IMG/VR virus record: IMGVR_UViG_2778261153_000009 | Coordinates: 1-41,300 of that record | Source: a virus | Taxonomy: Duplodnaviria; Heunggongvirae; Uroviricota; Caudoviricetes | DNA: 41,300 nt | Strand: one strand, 5' to 3' | Part shown: positions 1-39,314 of the stretch, piece by piece | Position numbering within the stretch: position 1 is the first letter of the stretch | Layout of the letters: every line of letters begins with the position of its first letter | Translations under genes and position numbers: made by a program | The notes under the pieces: model-generated | Database searches by the model: none | What the model saw: the letters and a program-made list of their open reading frames with translations, nothing else | What the model was told of the DNA's origin: nothing

Positions 1-1719
1 ATGATTTTTAGGGATAGCTTGAGAGTATTACCTTATGGTCGAGTAGATAATGATTTCTTCCAGATAGAAGAAAGACGTTCATGGAATGCAGGGCGATATT
101 ATTGGTCTAATAGAAGGATTTTTGGTTATATTGGAATTACTCAATCCAGTAATAAAGAGCTGAAAGATAAGTCGGGGAGAGAGGGATTCATAAGAAACCA
201 GGCTGCAAGAGAACTGAAAACTATTATATCTAATTTGTTAACTGAACTTGCTGATAGATTTTTTGGTTCACGTTCTGATGACCGTAAAGAGCTTTTAGAA
301 CAAGTTAAGCGTGAAAAAGAGTTAAGAAAATCTGCTCAACAACAAGCTCGAAAATCAACACAAAAAAGTTTTTCAGAAGCTTTGAAGAATCAGACACCAG
401 TTCTTGATGCTTCCTTGGAGGCTGTTAAAAGGCTGAAAACTAAGCTTGATAAAACTGATGGTTCGTTAGATTTAAACTATCTTAAAATTATAGACAGTGA
501 TCTTACAAACTTAGATGCGTTGCGCAGTGAAATTAAAACGCCTATCAAACCTCCAAAACTTGGAATGTATGAAGAGAAATATAGAGACTACAGAGATAAA
601 TTTAATGAGTTCTCTGCGTATATTCTACAAATGAAGTTAGCAATTAATAAACTTGATTCTGAATTAAATAAACTTGAGCCTTCATTGTCAGCGAAAAATC
701 ACCTTGAAAAAAATCAAGGTATTATTAATTCTAAACTAACTAAGTTTAATAACACGATAGAGGAGAAGATACATTCTCTTTTAAAAAAATGGGCCGATGA
801 AATAAAGGTTGATCGAAGTGATTATTATGCTAAAACTATATCAGTTGTTGATTCAATAGATAATGATTCACAAATTGAAAATGTGTTTAATTTGCTCGAT
901 AGTTTATATGTTGAGTCAGTTGATACCCTAACTTTCAAATATCAATCAATAATAAAAGGTCTCGATAGATTATTTGAAGGTATAAACTTAGATTCAGCAT
1001 TCTCATTATCTGAAGAAGAACGCTCATATTTTGAAGAAAAAGCTAAAAGTTTAAACGCGCTTGCACAGTTAGGTATTAGTGTTGAGATAATATCTCATGA
1101 ACTTGAAGAAATGGATTCTATGGTAACCAGAGGACTAAACTCTCTTCCTACTTCTGTAAAAGAACACCCTGGTTTTTCATTGGCGTTAAATGCTCACAGA
1201 TCGCTTACTCAACAAATACGTTTCTTATCACCTTTGAAAATATCAGGTTATCAATCCAGGCAGAGAATAACTGGAAAAAATATCATGGATTATGTCCTGA
1301 AGTTCTTTGGGGAGCGTTTCGAACGGCAACGAATAACTATTGAATTTAGTGAAGAGTTTAAGCAAATCGCAATAACAGATATACCATCAAGGATCTATCC
1401 TGTTTTTACTAATATTATCAACAATGCAATGTATTGGGTCAGTCTGTCAAATAATAGGCTCATAAAGATTGGTTTTGTGAATTCTTTGGTTATCATAGCA
1501 AATTCTGGTCCGGCAATTGATACCGATGATATCCCGCGACTATTTGAACTATTTTATAGCAAAAGAGCAAATGGACATGGGGTAGGTCTGTATCTATGTC
1601 GAGAAAACCTTGCTGTTGCACATCATAAAATATGGTATTCAGAACCTGATGAAGGCGATAACTATTTAATAAAAGATGGCGCTAATTTTGTGATCCAGTT
1701 CAATGGAGTGGAGTTCTAA
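1..1719 (+). CDS. Histidine-kinase-like protein (HisKA + HATPase_c) with long charged N-terminal region that looks coiled-coil; possibly 5'-truncated by window edge
   Basis: H-box EIISHELEEMDSMV (His codon 1096..1098), N-box FTNIINNAMYWV, G1 ANSGPAID, F FELFYS, G2 GHGVGLYL; H-to-N spacing ~105 aa. Confidence 0.7.
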   Translation: MIFRDSLRVLPYGRVDNDFFQIEERRSWNAGRYYWSNRRIFGYIGITQSSNKELKDKSGREGFIRNQAARELKTIISNLLTELADRFFGSRSDDRKELLEQVKREKELRKSAQQQARKSTQKSFSEALKNQTPVLDASLEAVKRLKTKLDKTDGSLDLNYLKIIDSDLTNLDALRSEIKTPIKPPKLGMYEEKYRDYRDKFNEFSAYILQMKLAINKLDSELNKLEPSLSAKNHLEKNQGIINSKLTKFNNTIEEKIHSLLKKWADEIKVDRSDYYAKTISVVDSIDNDSQIENVFNLLDSLYVESVDTLTFKYQSIIKGLDRLFEGINLDSAFSLSEEERSYFEEKAKSLNALAQLGISVEIISHELEEMDSMVTRGLNSLPTSVKEHPGFSLALNAHRSLTQQIRFLSPLKISGYQSRQRITGKNIMDYVLKFFGERFERQRITIEFSEEFKQIAITDIPSRIYPVFTNIINNAMYWVSLSNNRLIKIGFVNSLVIIANSGPAIDTDDIPRLFELFYSKRANGHGVGLYLCRENLAVAHHKIWYSEPDEGDNYLIKDGANFVIQFNGVEF

Positions 1720-1720
1720 T

Positions 1721-3469
1721 ATGACAGTGGCAAATTATAATTCTCTTGTCCAGAAAACTTTCTGCGAAAATGCAATTCGTTCCGTTGTCATGATTGATGA
1801 CGATTTTCTGACGTATTCTGAATCAATCAGGGCGTTGAATAACGAAGTTGATTTAGACTACAACAAAATTGACTCATCTAAACGAGCCGCTACTCTTGAG
1901 AGCTTTTTTCAATCTAAAAATATGATTTGTGATGTTGACAATGGTTCTGTTAATTTCGATGTGGATCGGATTAGAAAATCAGATCTTATTATTGTAGATT
2001 ATCATCTTGATAATAATGCACCTGATAAAACACTTAAACCATTACAAGATTTGAAAGACTCCGATCATTTAAATATGATTGTAATATATACTAGAGAGAA
2101 TTTAGAAACGGTTTGGATGCAGATATCATCGACTCTCAAAGGTGCTCTGGATATCAACAGCTTGATCATTGACTACGATAATGAAGATGTCCAAAGTTAT
2201 TGGGAAGACGTTGTATTACCGAACTTAAATGATAATGGTAATAAAGCTCTCACAAGAGATGAAACAATAGCCTATATTAAAGACAGTAAGCCTTGTAGAA
2301 GAATTAAAAGATTAATACATGATGATGCTGTGTTGGAGGATCAAAAGGATAAAAACTTCATTGCAAAAATGATTGCAGAATATGCTGTGTCTAGAAATGC
2401 AATTATTTCTAGCAACACATCTGGCAATGTCATTCGGGGTGATGAAAGCGGAGTAAAATGGATTCAATGTGGTAATATCTTTGTCTCCCTATTTCATAAG
2501 GTTCAAGATGATCATGAAAACGATGGAGATAGGATTTGGCAAACTCTCAATGATTCTCTCATTGAATGGAAACCATCTTATTATCAGTTAATAAAATCTG
2601 AAATTCAGAATGCAATCGAAGCTGAGGCTTTATCTTTTGTAAATCATTTGGCTAACGATCATTACGGTCAAGCTGCGTGGTTAAATGAGATATTAAAATC
2701 AGACTCGCCTGATATTAGATGTAGAAATATTGACTTTGTATTTGGTAATTTATCAGAAGAGCTTTATCAAAGACTTAAAAATAATAATACGCTGGATGAA
2801 TTTATCAAAAGTGTTTTTGATAGCTATTCAAATGAATACGCTAACAGCGGAGTTGCTGCATTGCTCCAATATTGCTCTTCAAAAATGGATCTGCCATCAA
2901 ATAATGATACTTATCACGAAATGTATCATGCTTTAAATATGAATTTGTCTTCAAAGAATTTTGAAGATGGTCATATTTCTACTGGCACTATTTTCTTTGA
3001 TACAGAGTCGAACAAATGGTATTTATGTGTATCTGCGGCATGTGATTTGGTTCCTACTCAGGGTAACGACCCTCACCATGTAAGATTAAGTCCGCACAGG
3101 CTCATTAAAGTTCTGGAGCTTTTTAACGCCAGTCAGAGTAAAGCATTGCCATTTGCTGAACATTCGAAATATATATATGTAATGCATAAAAATCAAAGAA
3201 AATATCTCTCTATTTTCGAAGGGGATAAAACGCTTCCTGTTGTTGATTATATGGTGGTGTTGAATCATGGAACAACAGTTGATGGCGAAGAAAAAAATAT
3301 TATTTCTGCCGTGTTTTTAAGTAATATGGATGGCAACGTGCAAAATGTTCCTGTCCGACTCAAACTTAAATCTCAACTGAGAACTGGTTATGCAGAAAGA
3401 TATCAGGCTATAGCGTCTCAGTATAGCTCAAGGATTGGTGTGGATTATGTATCAATGATGCTACCATAA
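1721..3469 (+). CDS. Receiver-like N-terminal domain fused to ~430-aa domain of unknown function
   Basis: ATG 1 nt after upstream stop with SD GGAGTGGAG; receiver-like pattern VVMIDDD / LIIVDYHL (Asp codon 1997..1999) / MIVIYT / K~140; C-terminal domain not recognised. Confidence 0.55.
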   Translation: MTVANYNSLVQKTFCENAIRSVVMIDDDFLTYSESIRALNNEVDLDYNKIDSSKRAATLESFFQSKNMICDVDNGSVNFDVDRIRKSDLIIVDYHLDNNAPDKTLKPLQDLKDSDHLNMIVIYTRENLETVWMQISSTLKGALDINSLIIDYDNEDVQSYWEDVVLPNLNDNGNKALTRDETIAYIKDSKPCRRIKRLIHDDAVLEDQKDKNFIAKMIAEYAVSRNAIISSNTSGNVIRGDESGVKWIQCGNIFVSLFHKVQDDHENDGDRIWQTLNDSLIEWKPSYYQLIKSEIQNAIEAEALSFVNHLANDHYGQAAWLNEILKSDSPDIRCRNIDFVFGNLSEELYQRLKNNNTLDEFIKSVFDSYSNEYANSGVAALLQYCSSKMDLPSNNDTYHEMYHALNMNLSSKNFEDGHISTGTIFFDTESNKWYLCVSAACDLVPTQGNDPHHVRLSPHRLIKVLELFNASQSKALPFAEHSKYIYVMHKNQRKYLSIFEGDKTLPVVDYMVVLNHGTTVDGEEKNIISAVFLSNMDGNVQNVPVRLKLKSQLRTGYAERYQAIASQYSSRIGVDYVSMMLP

Positions 3470-3540
3470 TTATTATATTTTAGGCGTGGTGATTTTTTTT
3501 CGCCATGCCTATTTTATATTTATCATCACAATGATGTTGT

Positions 3541-3957
3541 TTATTTTTGTTTAAGTCTTCTAAGCTTCATGCATTCTAATGAGAATAATAATAGAGTTGT
3601 GCTGTATATAAAGCCAGAGTTAGTTAATAACTTTAAATTTAATGCTTCAGGATTTTCACTGAGAAAGTGAAAGGCATAAACTAAGTATACAGCTAAAGTA
3701 GCCGTTCCAATTGTTGGTCCAATATCGCCTTGATCATGAGGTTCAAGGTTTACATTGAACTTGAAGATTAGCCATTCAAATCCCCAAGTAAAAAAAACAA
3801 CTAATATCATGGCTGCGAATAATTTCGCGATGTTATCTGCTGATGGATTCATCAGAACAGATTGTTTCTGAAAAAATTCACAAAGTGAGAGTCCGAAAAA
3901 AATAAAAAAAAGTGGTCTGGAACTAAATTTTTCAAAAACTTTGAATAGGGTTTCCAT
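3541..3957 (-). CDS. Small hydrophobic membrane protein, hypothetical
   Basis: 138-aa ORF with several hydrophobic stretches, AT-rich, convergent with the upstream operon. Confidence 0.4.
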   Translation of the reverse strand: METLFKVFEKFSSRPLFFIFFGLSLCEFFQKQSVLMNPSADNIAKLFAAMILVVFFTWGFEWLIFKFNVNLEPHDQGDIGPTIGTATLAVYLVYAFHFLSENPEALNLKLLTNSGFIYSTTLLLFSLECMKLRRLKQK

Positions 3958-3995
3958 TTTCTTTACCTTCAGGATTATATTAGCTATTCTGATAC

Positions 3996-5225
3996 TTAGG
4001 CTACCAGAGCATTTGATCTTTGAGCTTGAACGTAATCACTCCACCATTGCATCAAACTCTGTCGCTCTATCAGATATTCTGCACGATTGTATGCTGCGAT
4101 AATTTCATCTTTTTTCGAGTGGGCAAGCGCTGCCTCAAGAACTTCAGCTCTGAATTTACCAGACTCCTCTGCCGCTGTTCGTGCAATAGAACGCATACCG
4201 TGAGCTACAAGCTCGCCTCCGAACCCCATTCGGATGATAGCTGCGTTGGCTGTTTGTTCATGCATATGATTAAGAGGCGCTTTTATGCTGGGGAAAACCC
4301 ATTCTCTATGCCCACTTATTGATTTCATTAATTCAAGGATGCGCAAAGCTTCTTTACTCAAAGGAACTTTGTGAAGCTTTTTCATTTTCATGAAATCAGC
4401 AGGAATGTTCCAAATGCTGTTGGTTGTATCAATATCAGACCACCTTGCGCGAACGGCTTCACCCGGACGAACCCATGTCAACAATTGCCATTCAATTAGC
4501 ATACGTGTTTCCAACCGGATTGACGCATTCGTCAAAGATTCCATAAACCTTGGCAATTCGCTTGGGGGAAGGGCAGGCATATTTTGCTTTTTTGGTTTAC
4601 TGAATCTTTGACCAAGGTTGTCAGCCGGGTTGAACTCAATAAGTTCTTCAGTAGCTGCCCACCGGAAGATTTCATTCAGACGTGAAATGATACGGCGTAG
4701 AGTTTCCAATACGCCTCGTTGCTCAATAGGATCAAGGTGTTGTTTTAAGAGCTTAGGTCGGATCTCATTGATAGGGACATTACCCAGACCGGGAAAGACA
4801 TTTCTCTCTAAGCTGCGCCAGATGTCTGCTGCATGGTCTTGTGAGATACCTGATGTCTTTACCTTCTCATCTAACCATTTCCGCGCTACGGCTTGGAGAG
4901 TGTGCTCAGTAGCACTCTTTAATGCCTTCGCCTTATCGTTGTTATGGATTTGGGGATCAACACCATTTGCCAGAAAGGAGAGATATTCATCACGTAAGGC
5001 TCTGGCTCTTGCAAGGGTAAGGTGAGGATATGTCCCAAGGCTCATTTTGGTTCTTTTCTTGCTCACTGGTACTGCATACCTGAAATACCAATTTTTCTTG
5101 CCTCCTTTCGCCAAAGGAGCGATTCGTAGAATCAGACCATCACCGTCAAACAAGTTGATTTCTTTATCGGCTGGCTTGGTGCTTTTGATTTCAGTGTCAG
5201 TGAGCTTCTTAGCGATTTTTGCCAT
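3996..5225 (-). CDS. int: Tyrosine integrase, P4 family (IntA-like)
   Basis: N-terminus MAKIAKKLTDTEIK...LFDGDGLILRI, C-terminal SLMQWWSDY typical of P4-type integrases; start moved to Met15 of the ORF by analogy with IntA. Confidence 0.85.
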   Translation of the reverse strand: MAKIAKKLTDTEIKSTKPADKEINLFDGDGLILRIAPLAKGGKKNWYFRYAVPVSKKRTKMSLGTYPHLTLARARALRDEYLSFLANGVDPQIHNNDKAKALKSATEHTLQAVARKWLDEKVKTSGISQDHAADIWRSLERNVFPGLGNVPINEIRPKLLKQHLDPIEQRGVLETLRRIISRLNEIFRWAATEELIEFNPADNLGQRFSKPKKQNMPALPPSELPRFMESLTNASIRLETRMLIEWQLLTWVRPGEAVRARWSDIDTTNSIWNIPADFMKMKKLHKVPLSKEALRILELMKSISGHREWVFPSIKAPLNHMHEQTANAAIIRMGFGGELVAHGMRSIARTAAEESGKFRAEVLEAALAHSKKDEIIAAYNRAEYLIERQSLMQWWSDYVQAQRSNALVA

Positions 5226-5390
5226 TTTGGGACCCTCGGTTTTTGGACCCTTCTTAGTGGGTCCCATTCAGGGTGCCATAACTCGTAGTTCTCAGCAATT
5301 CTCACTGGACGACAATAGACGTAAAAAAGCCCGCAGAGCTTGTGCTGTGTGGGCTTAGTAGACTTCATTGAACTTCAAACAACTAAAAAG

Positions 5391-5422: not shown

Positions 5423-5849
5423 ATAGTTATGTAATTCATTGAATTTAAATAGCCAAATATTGTTGATTTTACAAGCGGCTCTTTTGCGGAACTTTTTCTG
5501 TCCTGTTACTGTCTTACTATTTATTTTAAAATAGTTTCATTTGGAATTAATGGTTTGTGGTTGCAGTTTCGGAGATAGATAGCATTTTTTGCTAAAAAAT
5601 ATTTTTATAAAAAAATGTGTGTAAAAATGATGTTATGCACAGATTTATGCACAGAGGCTTTGTGATAAACCAGATTGTTTTGGATAAGTTTGTTTTTTTG
5701 TGATTTGTCAACAATATTATTGACTCTTGTTACTAAAGTGAGTGTTTTCTAAGGTGGTCAGAAGTTGTCCCTTCATGTAATCTTATTAGCCATAAAGAAC
5801 AAAAAATAATTCAACATCATTACCAACTATTTGTAAGATAAGGTTTTTA

Positions 5850-7043: not shown

Positions 7044-7067
7044 AAAGCCACTTAAGTGGCTTTTTTT
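7044..7067 (+). terminator. Rho-independent terminator (hairpin AAAGCCAC-TTAA-GTGGCTTT + T-run)
   Basis: Perfect stem followed by TTTTTTT between convergent genes; overlaps int stop codon. Confidence 0.5.
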
Positions 7068-8224
7068 GTGATATTGCTGGTCGTATTACCGTCATATTCC
7101 TTTAAATATGAACCATAATGACGAAATAACATTTCCGGCCCTTTATGCCCCATTTGAGCTGCAAGCCAAAACAGGTTTGCTCCCCGGCTGATATGGCGGG
7201 TGGCGAATGTATGCCTAGTTTGATATGGATTTCTGTAACGAATACCTGCTTTTCGCAATGTTGGCACCCATGCTTTTTTCCTGATTGCATCAGCACTTGC
7301 CCAAGGCTTATTGGTCTTTGGATCTTCAAAGACAGTAGTATCCTTCATGAATGTAAATGGCTTCTGATTTATCAGCGCCAACATTGCCTCTTCTGTCAGT
7401 TCAACTTTCCGAGTACCTGCTTTTGTCTTTGTCCCTTTGATAACACCGACAACACTTGCGCTCTGGACATGGGCAGTTTTTCCAACAAAGTCGATATCAC
7501 GCCATCGAAGGGCACATAATTCAGAACTACGCAGGCCTGTATGTATAGCGAACCGGAACAGATTTTCCCATTGTTTGTTTCCGGCTGCTGCTAGTAATGC
7601 ATCAACTTCTGCTGGTGATAGCGGATCAACTACGTAGCTGCTTTCTGCTTCTGACTTATCACTTTGGTAGCGCGAAGCTGTTACTAACGATACGGGGTTA
7701 ATTTGAAGTACCCCATCGGTCACGGCTTCATCAAGTGCTGACCGCAGGAAAGATAACTGGTTGCGAATTGTTTTTAAGGTCGTTTTCTGATTTTGAATCC
7801 ACGCTTTCAGGGTTGCTGGTGTTAATTCACTTGCAGGGCAAATGTGAAGTGAGGCTAACGCACTACGGCATTTTTTATAGCCACCAATCGTAGAGGGTGA
7901 AAGTTTTCTTGTTTCGCAGATTTCAAGATATTCGTCCAGGTACATCTTTACCGTTTTGCCTGCAGCAGCATTACCAAAAATTTTCAAACGAGCAGAACGG
8001 GGAAAATATTCTGCATAAATGAATGTTCCCCTTTCGATCTTATTATGGATTTCGCCGAGTGTACGCTCGGCGTATTTAATGTTCTTTGGTGTTACTTCCA
8101 GATTGGAAAGCGGCTCACGACATCTAACTCCTTTGTAGGTGAAAGTTATATTGATCGTTTCTCCCTGGCGGTGTTTCCTGATTGTTACGCCGCGCGGTAG
8201 TTTGAGCAGTTTTGTCTGGCCCAT
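7052..8224 (-). CDS. int: Phage tyrosine integrase (lambdoid)
   Basis: C-terminal RHTFATRHISRGANLFWLAAQMGHKGPEMLFRHYGSY catalytic region; N-terminal arm-binding-like domain. Confidence 0.85.
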   Translation of the reverse strand: MGQTKLLKLPRGVTIRKHRQGETINITFTYKGVRCREPLSNLEVTPKNIKYAERTLGEIHNKIERGTFIYAEYFPRSARLKIFGNAAAGKTVKMYLDEYLEICETRKLSPSTIGGYKKCRSALASLHICPASELTPATLKAWIQNQKTTLKTIRNQLSFLRSALDEAVTDGVLQINPVSLVTASRYQSDKSEAESSYVVDPLSPAEVDALLAAAGNKQWENLFRFAIHTGLRSSELCALRWRDIDFVGKTAHVQSASVVGVIKGTKTKAGTRKVELTEEAMLALINQKPFTFMKDTTVFEDPKTNKPWASADAIRKKAWVPTLRKAGIRYRNPYQTRHTFATRHISRGANLFWLAAQMGHKGPEMLFRHYGSYLKEYDGNTTSNITKKAT

Positions 8225-9407: not shown

Positions 9408-9944
9408 TTACGACTCAGTTAACTCTTTAAAGCGTTCCATAAACATCCCGTAGGCATGGCCCGGTGCCAGTGGAATCACGTTGAACATCTCTGTTGCCGG
9501 GATACCTTCCAGTACGGGCCAGAAAGAGCCATCATCAAGCCCGAGATCGCGGCGTTCGGTTGCCAGCATGATGAGATCGGCATATTTCACGGGCGTACTC
9601 ATAACCGGGGGTAACCCGTATTTCTCACGGATTACGGCGTCTATTTTTTCTTCCATCCGTTTATAGTCAGGAAGAAGGCGTTTCAGTGGAGCCGGGATGT
9701 CCTGGCAATACGCTTCTGTTGCATCATGCATTAACGCTTCAAAAGCAAATTCCTGCGGTACCAGCTGGCTGCAAAGCACCGCATGTTGGGCGACGCTGTA
9801 GAAGTGTGAAAGATGGCCGGCAAAGCGACAGATATTTGAAAGGGAAACCGCGATATCGTTAATATCGATGTTGTCTTTATTTATCCTGTCATAATAAAAA
9901 TGTTTCCCGGAAAAAGTTTTAATAAATGACATTTTGTTCTCCAC
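9408..9944 (-). CDS. yfdR: HD-domain phosphohydrolase (YfdR-like)
   Basis: 178 aa; HD-type metal-binding motifs (H..HD); length and sequence match my recollection of CPS-53 YfdR. Confidence 0.65.
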   Translation of the reverse strand: MENKMSFIKTFSGKHFYYDRINKDNIDINDIAVSLSNICRFAGHLSHFYSVAQHAVLCSQLVPQEFAFEALMHDATEAYCQDIPAPLKRLLPDYKRMEEKIDAVIREKYGLPPVMSTPVKYADLIMLATERRDLGLDDGSFWPVLEGIPATEMFNVIPLAPGHAYGMFMERFKELTES

Positions 9945-10060: not shown

Positions 10061-10885
10061 TCAGGCGGTGAAAGTCCCAATAAAGGTTTCTACTTTGCTG
10101 TCCTTGAATTTCTCAACAAGCAGATCACGAAATTCGTTAGCCATATCTTCCTGCACCGCTTCCAGCTGAATAATGCGCAGAACCAGTACAGGACGATCGC
10201 CAGTGATAATGCTGAGGCGTAATTTAAACGGACGTTCTTTCAGACCTTCAAACGGAACGCATTTAAACTCAAATGCCACTGGCATAATGTCTTTGGTCTT
10301 CGCTTCGACAGACTCCATCAGGGAGCGTTTGCCGCTGAAGTCATTATCTTCAAAATCAGCAGTCTGGTTTGCTTCAATCGTGATTTTACGGACCGCCGCA
10401 GCCGCTTTTGTTGCCTGAATGGTGTCACCATTAGCATCAAAGCCCACAAGGTAGTCGGCCCAGTCTTCGATCCATTCTGCCAGTGACTTCTGGGAGTTAC
10501 GCTCGCCGTTAACAGACAACAGAGCAGAGAACGGTGCTGTCTTTTTCAGTTTGAGAGTGGCAGTGTTATCTGCGTGACCTGGCTCATCAATAGTACCCAG
10601 GTTAAGCACACTGACGGCACGCATATTATCGGCATCGATAAAGCAGCGGGTGCCTTCATCTGCAAGATCTTTAGAATAACGGGTAAAATCATCGATGCTG
10701 GCAGTGGAAAGTGCACCACGGAAACGGAAGCGATTTAAATTAAATTTTTCCAGATCATGAATGCGGAAATTCTCAGGCAATGCCACAGCATCGGCACCAA
10801 TCTTACTGATAATTTCATTAACACCCTGAGCAGAAATAAGGGCATGGATTTGATTAATTGCGGTTGCGTCTAAGTTCTGAGACAT
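10061..10885 (-). CDS. yfdQ: DUF2303-family prophage protein (YfdQ-like)
   Basis: 274 aa; position and length match yfdQ in the yfdP-Q-R arrangement. Confidence 0.6.
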
Positions 10886-11313: not shown

Positions 11314-11781
11314 TTTGCTGCTCCTCATCATATCGACCCTGCAAGGTCGGTTAGTTTCTCCACAAAACAGAGAAGAACACCTGCGGTGACTGCCGCCCGG
11401 ATGGATTGGGTTATGAGCCCGTCGTCCGGTGATGCTCTTCTCTGTTTTGTAAAAAGGACGGTACCAGCCGGAAGCAAGGGTACAAGCTGGTACCGCCAGG
11501 ACTACACACAGCATAAAGTTGTGGTGCCGGGTGCCTCCCGGTGCCTGGCGAAGGTTGCACACCAGGCGGGTGGGTATCCACAGAAGGTCGACTGTCAGCC
11601 TCAACCTTAACCCGCGTGCGCTGAGCCGCATTCACCACAACGCTAAGGATTCTCTCTGGTTGAAAATACTTAGCTGTTATGTGCCTGCTTTTAGCCACAT
11701 CAGGCGAGGTGGACCTGGTTATTCCCCAACAACAAGGATTCGGTTAATCTGGTTATCCCCAACAACGCAAAAGGAAAAGAA
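11314..11781. promoter_or_regulatory. GC-rich structured non-coding region between divergent genes (leader/regulatory or ncRNA)
   Basis: 15-bp perfect inverted repeat 11362..11376 / 11436..11450; 9-bp inverted repeat 11460..11468 / 11486..11494; two direct repeats CTGGTTATYCCCAACAAC at 11715..11733 and 11749..11766. Confidence 0.35.
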
Positions 11782-12733: not shown

Positions 12734-13426
12734 TTAATTATGTCTCTTAAGGGTTTGCGACTGACTGATTAAGACCTTTCCAAAGACCATGAATCGGTGT
12801 TCGTTTTCGCTAGTAATTCCCCATTCACGGTAAATCTGGTTATCAGAAATCACCAGCAGTTTGTCAGGAATCATTTGAAGTCTTTTAACGTATATTTTGT
12901 CATCAAAACCAAAGACATATATACCATCACCATCAAACTGATTGATGCTGACATCAACGAAGATGAGATCTCCTGGCTCAATGGTTGGACACATACTGTC
13001 CCCACGAACGTTGATAACTTTGATGTGATTGGCTGGTCGTCCGCCGAACATTGATACAGCATTATCAGTTCTGTATTCGATGGCATGAATCACATCAATG
13101 ACATCACCGCCCTGGATAAGGCCATTTCCCGCACTGGCACTGATATCCAGCATTTCAATACGGAACACATCCTTCACCTGCGCAACATCCTCATTATTAC
13201 TGTTTTTATATACAGTATTACTTTTGTGGGCAGAGGTAAAGAGATCAGCAATATCAACACCTAAGCTCTTGGCAATATTACTCAGTGTTTGTTCGGTAAA
13301 TTGTTTTTGCTTACCCGTTTCTAAGCGCGAGATGTTCGCCGCATCTACTCCTATTGCTTCAGCGAGATCGGCGATTTTCATGTTCTTCGCTTGGCGAAGT
13401 TGTCTGACTCGGTTTCCTATGTTCAT
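12734..13426 (-). CDS. CI-like phage repressor (HTH + S24 LexA-like peptidase domain)
   Basis: N-terminal HTH MNIGNRVRQLRQAKNMKIADLAEAIGVDAANISRLE; C-terminal autocleavage-type domain; divergent from cro-like gene. Confidence 0.85.
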   Translation of the reverse strand: MNIGNRVRQLRQAKNMKIADLAEAIGVDAANISRLETGKQKQFTEQTLSNIAKSLGVDIADLFTSAHKSNTVYKNSNNEDVAQVKDVFRIEMLDISASAGNGLIQGGDVIDVIHAIEYRTDNAVSMFGGRPANHIKVINVRGDSMCPTIEPGDLIFVDVSINQFDGDGIYVFGFDDKIYVKRLQMIPDKLLVISDNQIYREWGITSENEHRFMVFGKVLISQSQTLKRHN

Positions 13427-13523
13427 GCGTTTATTACATTTCTTTATTGCGTGATAAGCAAATCAACTTGCGCAAAATAATTGCGTGAAATAACATGCAT
13501 AACGCGCAATATCTGGAGGACAT
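13427..13523. promoter_or_regulatory. Immunity operator/promoter region (OR-like)
   Basis: Four copies of TTGCG(T/C)(G/A)A at 13447, 13468 (palindrome TTGCGCAA), 13481 and ~13502 between divergent cI-like and cro-like genes. Confidence 0.5.
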
Positions 13524-13784
13524 ATGCAATCACCATTACGAAATGTGCGTAAGGCGCATGGTTTCACTTTGCAGCATGTTGCTGCGGGTGTTCAAGTCAA
13601 TCCAGCGACGTTGAGTCGTATTGAGAGGCTGGAGCAGATTCCATCTATCGAGCTTGCAGAACGTTTAGCCAATTTTTTTAAGGGTGAAGTCAGCGAAATG
13701 CAGATTCTTTATCCGGCACGTTTTCAATCTAGCCAAAATCAGAATGGGTTTAAACCACAGGAACAGGAGGTGAACCGTGGGTAA
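13524..13784 (+). CDS. Cro-like HTH regulator
   Basis: 86-aa HTH protein, SD GGAGGA, transcribed divergently from repressor. Confidence 0.6.
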   Translation: MQSPLRNVRKAHGFTLQHVAAGVQVNPATLSRIERLEQIPSIELAERLANFFKGEVSEMQILYPARFQSSQNQNGFKPQEQEVNRG

Positions 13785-14328
13785 GCATCACTGGAAAGTA
13801 GAAAAACAGCCTGAGTGGTACGTGAAAGCTGTCAGAAAAACTATCGCAGCGTTGCCGGGGGGGTACGCTGAAGCTGCTGACTGGCTGGATGTAACAGAGA
13901 ACGCTTTATTCAACCGCCTTCGTGCCGATGGCGATCAGATTTTCCCGCTGGGATGGGCAATGATTTTGCAACGTGCTGGTGGAACTCACTTCATTGCTGA
14001 CGCTGTGGCGCAGTCTGCAAATGGCGTCTTTGTGTCTCTTCCTGACGTCGAGGATGTGGACAACGCCGATATTAACCAGCGCCTGCTGGAAGTCATTGAA
14101 CAGATCGGCAGTTATTCAAAACAGATTCGTTCAGCAATTGAAGACGGTGTAGTGGAACCGCATGAGAAGACAGCAATTAACGACGAGCTGTACCTCTCAA
14201 TTTCGAAGCTGCAGGAGCATGCAGCACTGGTCTACAAAATTTTTTGCATTTCAGAAAGTAATGACGCCCGCGAGTGTGCAGCTCCGGGCGCCGTGGCGTG
14301 TCGTGACTGTGGAGAAACTAACGCATGA
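13777..14328 (+). CDS. CII-like phage regulatory protein (CP76 family)
   Basis: 183 aa; position after cro; resembles CII/CP76-type regulators as I recall them. Confidence 0.5.
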
Positions 14329-14663
14329 ACAGTTTAACAACACACTACCGTCGCTCGCAACTGATTGCGCTTCCTGTACCGGGTGGAAAAGCGAAGGTGG
14401 AGTATTGCTATGCAGTAAATGTACCAGGTGACAGGGAAATTGTAACCCACAGCTTTGCAGAGTGGGCTGTGGGTGATTTCAACCGGCAGAAGGAGACAGT
14501 CCTTTGCGACAAGTTAACCGCTGGTTCAAAGATCACTACGGAGTGCCCGTCAGAGTCATTCGTTGGGAGCCGGAAACACAACGGGTTATCTACCTCCGCG
14601 AAGGCTATGAGCATGAGTGCTTCAGCCCGCTCGAACAGTTTCGTCGTAAATTCAGGGAAATAG
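14325..14663 (+). CDS. Hypothetical protein
   Basis: ORF in operon context, overlapping stop/start with neighbours. Confidence 0.35.
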
Positions 14664-14672
14664 AGGTCGGTC

Positions 14673-15614
14673 ATGAGCACTAAATTAACCGGCTATGTAT
14701 GGGATGGTTGCGCTGCATCAGGCATGAAATTATCCAGCGTGGCAATTATGGCCCGCCTGGCTGATTTCAGTAATGACGAAGGTGTGTGCTGGCCATCAAT
14801 TGAAACCATTGCCCGCCAGATTGGCGCGGGGATGAGTACCGTCAGAACGGCTATCGCACGGCTGGAAGCAGAAGGCTGGTTAACGCGTAAGGCGCGTCGC
14901 CAGGGTAACCGCAATGCGTCGAATGTTTATCAGCTTAACGTTGCGAAGCTTCAGGCAGCGGCATTTTCTCAACTGTCAGATTCTGACCCGTCAAAATCTG
15001 ACGCATCAAAATCTGACCCGTCAAAATTTGATGCGTCGAAATCTGGCAAAAAAGCGGGTTTTCACCCGTCAGAATCTGGCGGGGATCCGTCAGTAAAATC
15101 AAAACATGATCCGTCAGATAAAAAAACTTCTCGTCCGGACGCTTCGCAACCGGACACGCAGACGGATGAACAGGATTTTTTAACTCGCCATCCTGATGCG
15201 GTTGTATTCAGCCCTAAAAAGCGCCAGTGGGGAACGCAGGATGATTTGACCTGCGCACAGTGGCTCTGGAAAAAAATCATCGCCCTGTACGAGCAGGCCG
15301 CCGAATGTGACGGCGAGGTGGTTCGTCCCAAAGAACCGAACTGGACAGCCTGGGCAAACGAAATTCGCCTGATGTGTGTGCAGGATGGTCGTACTCACAA
15401 ACAAATCTGCGAGATGTACAGCCGCGTCAGCCGCGATCCGTTCTGGTGCCGTAACGTGCTCAGCCCGTCGAAGCTGCGGGAAAAATGGGATGAGCTTTCC
15501 CTGCGCTTATCGCCGTCCGTAAGCACGTACACTGAAAAACGCGAAGACCCGTACTTCAAATCCAGTTACGACAACGTGGACTACAGCCAGATCCCGGCAG
15601 GATTCAGGGGGTGA
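14673..15614 (+). CDS. Phage replication initiator (O-like; HTH N-terminus, DnaT-like C-terminus)
   Basis: N-terminal winged-helix-like region, repetitive S/D/K linker encoded by iterons, C-terminal replication domain. Confidence 0.7.
   Translation: MSTKLTGYVWDGCAASGMKLSSVAIMARLADFSNDEGVCWPSIETIARQIGAGMSTVRTAIARLEAEGWLTRKARRQGNRNASNVYQLNVAKLQAAAFSQLSDSDPSKSDASKSDPSKFDASKSGKKAGFHPSESGGDPSVKSKHDPSDKKTSRPDASQPDTQTDEQDFLTRHPDAVVFSPKKRQWGTQDDLTCAQWLWKKIIALYEQAAECDGEVVRPKEPNWTAWANEIRLMCVQDGRTHKQICEMYSRVSRDPFWCRNVLSPSKLREKWDELSLRLSPSVSTYTEKREDPYFKSSYDNVDYSQIPAGFRG
14977..15125. repeat. Iteron array (putative phage origin) inside the initiator gene
   Basis: 6-7 imperfect direct repeats of CCGTCA(A/G)AATCTGA followed by an A-rich stretch. 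Confidence 0.6.
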
Positions 15615-16105
15615 TCATGAGTCTGTTAAATGACGTTCAGAAATTCATTGAAGCCCATCCGGGGTGTACTTCCGGAGACATTGCGGATGCTTTTGCTGGT
15701 TACTCACGGCAGCGCGTTCTGCAGTCAGCAAGCAAGTTACGTCAGAGTGGGCGTGTGGCTCACCGTTGTGAAGGGGATACACGCAGACATTTCCCGCGCC
15801 TGACTGAGAGAGCGCAGGAGCCGGAACCACAACCAGTTCGTGAAACCAGACCTGCGCGCAATTTCTATGTCGGCACTAACGATCCCCGGGTGATTTTGTG
15901 CCTGACCCGCCAGGCGGAAGAACTGGAGTCAAGGGGCTTATACCGTCGTGCTGCAACCGTGTGGATGGCGGCATTCCGTGAAAGCCACTCCCAGCCAGAA
16001 CGAAACAATTTTCTGGCGCGTCGTGAGCGGTGCTTACGGAAAAGCAGCAAGCACGCTGCATCGGGTGAAGAGTGGTATCTGTCAGGGAATTACGTGGGGG
16101 CTTAA
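15611..16105 (+). CDS. PerC-like regulatory protein (putative)
   Basis: Motif AEELESRGLYRRAATVWMAA resembles PerC-family signature. Confidence 0.4.
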   Translation: MIMSLLNDVQKFIEAHPGCTSGDIADAFAGYSRQRVLQSASKLRQSGRVAHRCEGDTRRHFPRLTERAQEPEPQPVRETRPARNFYVGTNDPRVILCLTRQAEELESRGLYRRAATVWMAAFRESHSQPERNNFLARRERCLRKSSKHAASGEEWYLSGNYVGA

Positions 16106-16758
16106 TGAGTAATAAATATTGCCAGGCGCTGGTGGAACTGCGGAATAAACCAGCCCATGAACTGAAGGAAGTGGGAGATCAGTGGCGCACGCCGGATAAC
16201 ATTTTCTGGGGAATTAACACCCTGTTTGGTCCGTTTGTTCTGGATCTGTTCACTGACGGTGATAACGCCAAATGTGCCGCGTATTACACGGCGGAAGACA
16301 ACGCGCTGGCGCATGACTGGTCAGAACGTCTTGCGGAGCTTAAAGGTGCTGCCTTTGGTAATCCCCCATACAGCCGCGCCAGTCAGCATGAGGGGCAATA
16401 CATCACCGGCATGCGTTACATCATGAAACATGCCAGTGCCATGCGTGATAAGGGCGGGCGCTATGTTTTCCTGATCAAAGCTGCCACCAGCGAAGTGTGG
16501 TGGCCGGAAGATGCGGACCATATTGCTTTTATTCGCGGGCGTATTGGTTTTGAACTGCCTGCCTGGTTTATCCCGAAGGATGAGAAGCAGGTGCCGACAG
16601 GCGCTTTCTTCGCTGGTGCTATTGCTGTTTTCGACAAGACCTGGAAGGGACCGGCAATCAGCTACATCGGGCGCGATGAACTTGAGGCATGTGGTGAAGC
16701 CTTTCTGGTGCAGGTTCGCCAGCAGGCGGAAAAACTGGTCAGGGAGATGGCGGCATGA
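16105..16758 (+). CDS. Phage N6-adenine DNA methyltransferase (Dam-like)
   Basis: FGNPPYS catalytic motif; ATG overlaps upstream stop (TAATG). Confidence 0.75.
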   Translation: MSNKYCQALVELRNKPAHELKEVGDQWRTPDNIFWGINTLFGPFVLDLFTDGDNAKCAAYYTAEDNALAHDWSERLAELKGAAFGNPPYSRASQHEGQYITGMRYIMKHASAMRDKGGRYVFLIKAATSEVWWPEDADHIAFIRGRIGFELPAWFIPKDEKQVPTGAFFAGAIAVFDKTWKGPAISYIGRDELEACGEAFLVQVRQQAEKLVREMAA

Positions 16759-17081
16759 CGACGTTAACTCAATGCCAGCAGCAGGTGCTGGATATGCTGA
16801 TTTCTTACCAGAAAGAGCGTGGCTTTCCGCCAACCAATCAGGAGGTGGCAACCATGCTGGGATACCGTTCAGTGAATGCAGCGGTAGAGCATCTTCGTGC
16901 ACTGGAGAAAAAAGGCGTCATCACGATAAAGCGTGGCGTGGCCCGGGGGATAACGCTTCATACCGCGGTGAAGGACGACGACAGCGAGGCGGTCGGGATT
17001 ATCCGCACACTGCTTGCCGGTGAGGAAAACGCCAGGCTGCGTGCAGCCCACTGGTTACATGAGAGGGGGCTGAAAGTATGA
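16755..17081 (+). CDS. LexA-N-terminal-like DNA-binding protein
   Basis: QQVLDMLISYQKERGFPPTNQEVATMLGYRSVNAAVEHLRALEKKGVI resembles the LexA DNA-binding domain. Confidence 0.55.
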   Translation: MTTLTQCQQQVLDMLISYQKERGFPPTNQEVATMLGYRSVNAAVEHLRALEKKGVITIKRGVARGITLHTAVKDDDSEAVGIIRTLLAGEENARLRAAHWLHERGLKV

Positions 17082-38889: not shown

Positions 38890-39314
38890 TGGAACTGTGG
38901 CTGACGGTGAACGGTAAACGCACCTGCGCCAGCGCACCGCTGGATCCGCTGACCCGTGCCGTGGTGATTTCCCTGTTCACCTGGCGGCGGGCTGAACCTA
39001 ATGACAATGCCGACGTCCCGATGGGATGGTGGGGGGATACCTGGCCTGCGGTACAGAATGACCGTTACGGCTCCCGACTGTGGCTGCTTCAGCGCAGCAA
39101 ACTGACCAATCAGCTGGTGCAGACGGTAAGGGGGTATATCCGCGAATGCCTGCAATGGATGATTGATGACGGCGTGGTGTCCCGTATTGATCTGGATATC
39201 CGCCGCACCGGGATTAATGAGCTGGGTAACAGTATCACCCTCTGGCGTCGTGACGGACCGGTAATGATTTCTTTTGATGATCTGTGGAGTGCGATAACGC
39301 ATGGCGGACAGTGA
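38886..39314 (+). CDS. Baseplate protein (Mu gp46-like)
   Basis: 142 aa, position in baseplate module. Confidence 0.6.
   Translation: MMELWLTVNGKRTCASAPLDPLTRAVVISLFTWRRAEPNDNADVPMGWWGDTWPAVQNDRYGSRLWLLQRSKLTNQLVQTVRGYIRECLQWMIDDGVVSRIDLDIRRTGINELGNSITLWRRDGPVMISFDDLWSAITHGGQ

Follow-up and report, generated by a model that had tools for sequence, protein, structure and literature searches.

The window, as we call the whole 41.3-kb stretch of DNA analysed here, is a segment of a bacterial chromosome that carries a lambdoid prophage of the SfII/SfIV kind. A gene for a putative replication initiator lies in this prophage downstream of a cI-like repressor gene, cro, a CII/CP76-like gene and an ORF of the DUF4222 family, so that it follows cro and cII as lambda O does. 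It is itself followed by PerC-like, Dam, repressor-like, RusA, KilAC, HNH and Q genes. The features of the locus are given below, with a strand only where one applies.

14673..15614, plus strand: replication-initiator gene, an ORF of 313 aa
14673..14963, plus strand: region coding for the N-terminal winged-helix DNA-binding domain (HTH_36, aa 23-70 = 14739-14882)
14976..15046: five tandem iteron-like units with a 15-bp period, located by repeat finding, a degenerate-core search and conservation in 87 genes
14976, 14991, 15006, 15021 and 15036: starts of the 11-bp cores of these units, TCAGATTCTGA, TCAAAATCTGA, TCAAAATCTGA, TCAAAATTTGA and TCGAAATCTGG
15047..15068: spacer of 22 bp with an A6 run and a T4 run, CAAAAAAGCGGGTTTTCACCCG
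15069..15079: sixth core, TCAGAATCTGG, in a block with at least 80% per-position conservation (82 genes)
15084-15093 and 15108-15117: two exact GATCCGTCAG repeats, flanking a degenerate core
15094..15128: A-rich tract, candidate DNA-unwinding element, from a nearest-neighbour stability scan
15118..15151: mosaic junction between "DNA-binding domain plus repeats" and the C-terminal module, from alignments with phiNP and mEp460_4F5
15216..15503, plus strand: region coding for the lambda-O-like C-terminal domain (aa 182-277)

The initiator gene is 99.2% identical to the gene for gp41 of Shigella phage SfIV and 98.6% identical to the SfII gene. Its relatives have been annotated variously as "replication protein", "replication protein O" or "DNA replication protein O", "primosomal protein" and "HTH domain protein". 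The first-pass annotation of this DNA had called it a replication initiator gene, and homology searches bear this out: the profile PHROG 391 (phrog_391, "replication initiation O-like") matches the whole protein, residues 1-313, with E=1e-135, and aa 182-277 align to aa 185-270 of lambda O with E=4e-26 (BLASTP). By homology, the gene is a member of the replication initiators. Its N-terminal part matches HTH_36 (Pfam PF13730) with E=4e-11 and 42.9 bits, which passes the curated threshold of 25. A Pfam scan of the initiator N-terminus found no match to PF04492 (Phage_rep_O), the family that lambda O itself matches with E=6e-36. Furthermore, alignment of this N-terminus to that of lambda O gave a probability of 0.04 (hhalign), that is, no detectable relation, and a PDB sequence search with the initiator returned just weak matches to winged-helix proteins of the MarR type. 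Of the hallmarks of the lambda O family, the locus as predicted has the C-terminal domain and lacks both an N-terminal Phage_rep_O domain and a downstream P-type loader gene. The two domains are separated by a linker of about 50-65 residues, which is encoded by the repeat array. An AlphaFold model built on a shallow alignment (mean pLDDT 50), used here just for noting that the linker is unstructured, placed aa 100-164 at a pLDDT of about 30 and without secondary structure; the same low-quality model predicted aa 189-279 of the C-terminal part as helical (pLDDT 60-83).

The DUF4222 ORF (59 aa, 14504-14683, plus strand; Pfam E=9e-19) ends 11 nt into the initiator gene. In 70 of 95 related loci the initiator start is abutted by a homologue of this ORF, which makes it a conserved and probably translationally coupled partner of the initiator. 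SfIV and SfII annotate an ORF of 112 aa in another frame, 14325-14663, which overlaps it.

Repeat finding resolved the "six to seven" copies of CCGTCA(A/G)AATCTGA reported by the first-pass annotation into six cores and a degenerate seventh. Tandem Repeats Finder described 14982-15045 either with a period of 15 (4.3 copies, score 86) or with a period of 30 (score 100), and a repeat search gave start-to-start spacings of 15, 15, 15, 15 and 33 between the cores. The core is near-palindromic over 11 bp (TCARAWTCTGR, or TCA-RAWTC-TGA), with dyad symmetry in each copy. When the window was searched with the degenerate pattern TCRRAWTYTGR, six sites were found, all within 104 bp (14976-15079) and none elsewhere in the 41.3 kb; this corresponds to 10 strand-matches against 1.42 expected, a number reached in 0 of 100 shuffles. 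The spacer between cores 5 and 6 puts the sixth core 3 bp beyond the 15-bp register. Beyond it, each GATCCGTCAG copy consists of the iteron half-site CCGTCAG joined to GATC, and the degenerate seventh core, TCAAAACATGA, lies between them at 15099-15109. Within the 313-aa ORF the array encodes the peptide SDSDPSKSDASKSDPSKFDASKSG...HPSESGGDPSVKSKHDPSDKK, in which the copies read (D/E)xS(K/E)S; the coordinates and the repetitive S/D/K linker first reported for this segment thus stand.

The A-rich tract said to follow the repeats was likewise recovered, at 15094-15128. It is 74% A+T and the least stable 35-mer of the initiator gene (z=3.2, nearest-neighbour scan); as a positive control, the same scan of lambda O returned the known AT-rich region of ori-lambda, 80% A+T, beside iteron 4. 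The tract is short, and GC content per 60 nt falls just to about 0.43-0.45. No DnaA boxes were found near the array, the sole matches in the window being at 5618-5653. GC skew across the window was uninformative, with no inflection at 15 kb, and a sigma-70 promoter scan of 13300-15800 returned zero sites. The spacer contains a terminator-like hairpin on the minus strand whose stem is not kept in relatives. An Rfam search of 13000-17000 returned a single match of a miRNA hairpin model to the palindromic array, which at 30.7 bits against a gathering threshold of 97 was taken as chance. As a separate observation, 14970-15130 folds as DNA at -28.4 kcal/mol (z=-5.3 against shuffles), a strong potential for single-strand hairpins or a cruciform that arises because the half-sites alternate in inverted orientation. 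The A-rich block also holds two GATC sites, at 15084-15087 and 15108-15111, 24 bp apart, and a Dam-type methylase gene lies at 16072-16758, as it does close downstream in 32 of 80 genome loci within the flank examined. This pairing might reflect control of an origin by methylation or SeqA.

All repeat spacings in the window are multiples of 3, so that the window alone cannot separate repetition at the DNA level from repetition at the peptide level, and for this reason relatives were compared. The set of homologues, drawn from 13 phage records and 80 genome loci of many Enterobacterales genera, comprised 87 distinct genes with N-terminal amino acid identities of 59-100%. These genes share ancestry and their counts are not independent; the N-terminal domain of the same genes therefore served as an internal control. 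The array was found at the same place in 87 of 87 genes, and the core almost never elsewhere in the gene. Codon usage within the units was fixed position by position: the first Ser codon was TCA in 319 of 358 units (16% elsewhere in the same genes), the second was TCT in 284 of 358 (10% elsewhere), and the middle codon was AAA, GAA, GAT or AAT, i.e. R-A-W encoding K, E, D or N, in 357 of 358. The one exception was GAC; AAG, GAG and AAC occurred in none of the 358 units. From core 6 to the A-rich block, the majority nucleotide accounted for fractions of 0.86, 0.85 and 0.81 at codon positions 1, 2 and 3, as against 0.84, 0.90 and 0.53 in the N-terminal domain. Similarly, pairwise third-position identity between the window and distant genes was 0.76 in the block and 0.41 in the N-terminal domain. 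Two reading frames are used for the motif TTTGACCCTTCAGAWTCTGG in phiP27, Stx2_KH16-043 and a Citrobacter locus, giving FDPSDSG and LTLQNLD, at a spacing of 32. Unit number ranged from 3 to 10 among homologues, in 15-bp steps, and the +3 phase of the distal core was kept in 75 of 81 genes; the GATC pair was present in 74 of 81 homologues, with the 24-bp spacing in 70. These comparisons argue that the repeats are under selection at the nucleotide level and not at the peptide level. Among natural variants of the gene we also observed alleles with three more units or one fewer unit of 15 bp, and one that is frameshifted through the array, reads ...NLTHQNLTRQNL... and then returns to frame.

Comparison of more divergent genes revealed where these conserved elements are exchanged. 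Citrobacter phage phiNP has the N-terminal domain and repeats in common with the window up to gene nt 479 (~15151), beyond which its C-terminus is of the Phg_2220_C type; between these two sequences, the repeat block is better conserved than the coding sequence that flanks it. The converse was seen in mEp460_4F5, whose C-terminus is 97% identical from ~15118 (gene nt 446) and whose N-terminus is unrelated; it has an array of its own, with six 23-bp units and then an AT-rich 12-bp triplet. Homologues at greater distance have other repeats in the same place, with spacings that are not multiples of 3, e.g. 17/22, 23/22/24 or 23 bp, and a 48%-identical relative has a 15-bp period with another conserved unit, TTGACCCGTCAA, and retains the GATCCGTCAG pair. 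Because phiNP and mEp460_4F5 have swapped the C-terminus on the one hand and the N-terminus with its array on the other, the alignments indicate that DNA-binding domain and array are exchanged together, as a single specificity module to which the C-terminal domain does not belong. That a DNA-binding domain and its origin act as one specificity module is established for lambda O and ori-lambda. A short segment at 15128-15160, CTTCTCGTCCGGACGCTTCGCAACC, which encodes TSRPDASQP or PSCPVAAQP, is common to genes with different C-terminal types and coincides with the mosaic junctions; it may serve as a linker for recombination or belong to the origin.

Taken together, the anatomy of the segment, its nucleotide-level conservation and the swapping of modules give good inferential support to the lambda-like arrangement, an origin inside the O gene, that had been proposed on first reading from repeats that encode a linker and an A-rich tract downstream of them. 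On this evidence, 14976-15128 is most probably the replication origin of an SfII/SfIV-type lambdoid prophage, located inside its own initiator gene. Judging from gene order, early rightward transcription through cro, the cII-like gene, the DUF4222 ORF and the initiator gene would supply the protein. Dimers of its N-terminal HTH_36 domain would then occupy the near-palindromic 11-bp cores, five of them at a 15-bp phase and the sixth 33 bp on, and the initiator would perhaps also bind the CCGTCAG half-sites in the adjacent block. By analogy with the lambda O-some, the resulting nucleoprotein complex would destabilise the A-rich tract at 15094-15128, and the lambda-O-like C-terminal domain would recruit the host helicase without a P-type loader. 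The searchable literature yielded no experiments that address binding, unwinding or origin activity in this initiator family, and the SfIV paper does not discuss the origin.

Several other explanations of the repeats were weighed against this one. One is that they are coding sequence only, a low-complexity Ser/Asp/Lys linker generated by slippage and without function at the DNA level. Every copy in the window is indeed in frame and encodes (D/E)xS(K/E)S, unit number differs between relatives in 15-bp steps, and the linker is predicted to be unstructured, if by a low-quality model. A peptide repeat, however, needs no palindromic core, and it would not account for Ser codons fixed by position, for a K/E/D/N residue whose codon is nearly always R-A-W (357 of 358), for third codon positions as conserved as the first and second, or for the use of a second reading frame for the motif in phiP27-type genes. 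With the amino acid varying and the nucleotides fixed, the homologue comparison largely refutes this reading, and we regard it as extremely improbable. A function in DNA could instead lie in exchange between phages, the conserved block serving as a recombination "linker" that aids the shuffling of mosaic lambdoid modules and has no part in initiation. The mosaic junctions at 15118-15151 do lie immediately at the block's right-hand edge. Yet the conserved tandem cores extend up to 150 bp from the junction, and a linker of this kind should be common to different module types, whereas the cores are specific to one type of DNA-binding domain and relatives with another N-terminus have another array; such a role is very unlikely to explain the block.

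It is harder to set aside the idea that the initiator or some other protein binds the repeats for regulation, with the origin elsewhere or replication mainly dependent on recombination. Possible roles for such sites are autoregulation, titration or "handcuffing" in copy control, and the blocking of transcription through the gene. Nucleotide-level conservation tells of a DNA function and not of which one, the A-rich tract is modest, and lambdoid phages with O alone have been described as not understood, some of them being dependent on recombination for growth (PMC12315714). Against this, the window holds no second repeat cluster and no further copy of the core, the succession of repeats and then the least stable tract mirrors ori-lambda, and the module structure fits that of origin-specificity modules. 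On balance we consider a purely regulatory array unlikely and an origin at 14976-15128 the preferred interpretation.

What counts against the origin interpretation is an A-rich tract shorter and less extreme than lambda's, a 15-bp phase unlike that of lambda, the in-frame spacing of all copies in the window, and the machinery around the segment: no gene for a helicase loader, helicase or primase is present. A tblastn search of the 41.3-kb window gave zero matches to lambda P, and the SfII genome annotation lists no helicase, loader or primase. One way to join these observations is an origin type that works independently of a phage-encoded loader. In such a scheme, a single O-like initiator on 15-bp-phased cores could open a short A-rich element that holds two fusions of a half-site to GATC, and could recruit host DnaB-DnaC directly. 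Methylation of the GATC pair could gate firing, with the phage dam gene about 1 kb downstream; the phage YfdR homologue (see below) might help; and an orphan copy of the array in the K-12 prophage CPS-53 could offer related phages, on infection, a chromosomal site to titrate against or fire. As a combination of all these parts the scheme is speculative and, in our view, holds jointly with only a small chance.

Two genes on the minus strand, at 9408-9944 and 10061-10885, are homologues of K-12 yfdR and yfdQ, respectively, with about 96% DNA identity. YfdR has been reported to bind domain I of DnaA in competition with DnaB (PMC4776307), which is suggestive for a phage without a helicase loader. 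At its left end (1-5300), the window contains an island of low GC content (34-40%) with genes for a HATPase/HEF_HK protein, a Response_reg_2 protein and a P4-type integrase (3996-5267). This island lies next to the prophage integrase gene (7052-8224), and the two integrated elements are in tandem. Between the two integrase genes, 5618-5655 holds a 12-bp tandem repeat, TTATGCACAGAT, in two copies with DnaA-box-like TTATGCACA motifs; it is possibly an attachment or arm-type site.

The initiator gene is widespread. At a coverage of at least 80% it was found in 1576 of 5426 complete E. coli genomes, the family is also present in many other Enterobacterales and in the Shigella serotype-converting phages SfII and SfIV, and related HTH_36 types occur in some Stx phages. 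In particular, the cryptic prophage CPS-53 of E. coli K-12 MG1655 carries the complete array and A-rich block with 3 substitutions:

NC_000913.3 ~2,473,364-2,473,516, minus strand: CPS-53 copy of the array, matched to the window (compared region 14906-16371)

This copy lies directly upstream of yfdO, which corresponds to the C-terminal 122 aa of the initiator. A deletion in CPS-53 that joins the equivalents of window positions 11332 and 14906 has removed the immunity region and the part of the gene coding for the N-terminal DNA-binding domain; because the cognate DNA-binding domain has been lost with it, the array is an orphan in K-12. A search of plasmids matched mainly prophages within large replicons or chromosomes misfiled as plasmids, and one ambiguous 16-kb circle of the lambda-dv kind. 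This record (NZ_CP148542.1, 15,977 bp, circular, labelled as a plasmid) consists of a lambdoid early-right region with cI, cro, an HTH_36 initiator homologue (48% identity), a DnaC-like gene, nin, Q and lysis genes, and the initiator homologue carries 15-bp repeats of its own. The record represents either a replicon like lambda-dv or an artefact of assembly.

The candidate origin is now defined by its core consensus, a conserved block of 60 bp and the boundary of its module, and it makes lambdoid initiation without a P-type loader directly testable, the K-12 orphan array without its cognate DNA-binding domain being a convenient test bed. It may also aid the reading of prophage induction and escape replication.

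Among known systems, iteron plasmids of the RepA, pi and TrfA class have intergenic, helix-phased iterons of 17-22 bp with one or more DnaA boxes and an AT-rich DUE beside the rep gene. Assignment of the segment to this class was rejected, as its repeats are intragenic, have a 15-bp phase and have no DnaA box nearby. An origin embedded in the initiator gene is, by contrast, textbook for lambdoid phages: ori-lambda, in gene O, has four iterons of about 19 bp and an AT-rich region, and O binds the iterons while P brings DnaB. The comparison with the lambda origin made by the first-pass annotation stands for the dyad-symmetric repeats, for their place in the middle of the gene, where they encode the interdomain linker, and for the least stable, A-rich tract directly downstream; the homologous C-terminal domain and the place of the gene after cro and cII extend the likeness. 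It does not stand for the family of the DNA-binding domain, which is HTH_36 here and Phage_rep_O in lambda O, nor for the phasing, as the 11-bp cores recur every 15 bp (~1.4 helical turns) whereas the lambda iterons are spaced at 20, 24 and 23 bp. Moreover, the copies in the window are all in frame while the lambda spacings are not multiples of 3, the window has no P gene, and its A-rich tract is shorter and 74% A+T, as opposed to 80% in lambda. We also note that lambda 39161-39194, to the right of the AT-rich region, TCGTCAGAGAATTCTGGCGAATCC, resembles the sixth unit of the window at 15066-15093, CCGTCAGAATCTGGCGGGGATCC, a likeness that may be left over from a common ancestor of the linker region.

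Further parallels are provided by P22 and phage L, for which Casjens and colleagues inferred an origin in gene 18 from sequence and module swapping, the putative origin of phage L comprising six imprecise 11-bp repeats, TGTCCAACGGA (PMC8022706). There, as here, each type of initiator has a distinct set of repeats inside its own gene, and the origin was inferred in the same manner; the differences are that a DnaB-type helicase gene (gene 12) lies beside their initiator and that their repeats and DNA-binding domains are unrelated to those of the window. The Stx phages 933W and "P27" have origins with six iterons (PMC7466680), in which the extra iterons lengthen the initiator, so that copy number differs among relatives as it does in the window's family (3-10 units). 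Unlike the present locus, these phages have genuine O and P systems of the lambda type, which are backed by experiment (PMC7466680). The "P27" of that study was considered as the source of the phiP27 L17 gene and this identity was rejected, since "P27" has a lambda-type O. In a 2025 study, 34 of 314 lambdoid phages had an O homologue alone and their replication was stated as not understood (PMC12315714), and the same was stated for the HTH_36 proteins in the replication regions of Stx-phage types Eru5, 6, 8, 11 and 13 (PMC8951638); iterons are mentioned in neither report. One of the "O-only" phages, LLS (PMC12315714), is close to the window: its gp44 has the same type of N-terminal domain (87% amino acid identity) and the repeat block in common, and no loader gene accompanies it, although its C-terminus is Phg_2220_C and not O-like. 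Thus the arrangement itself is already known, and the initiator family of the window is common but uncharacterised. By its architecture as read from the DNA, the segment belongs with the initiator-embedded origins of lambdoid phages, the class represented by ori-lambda, P22 and phage L.
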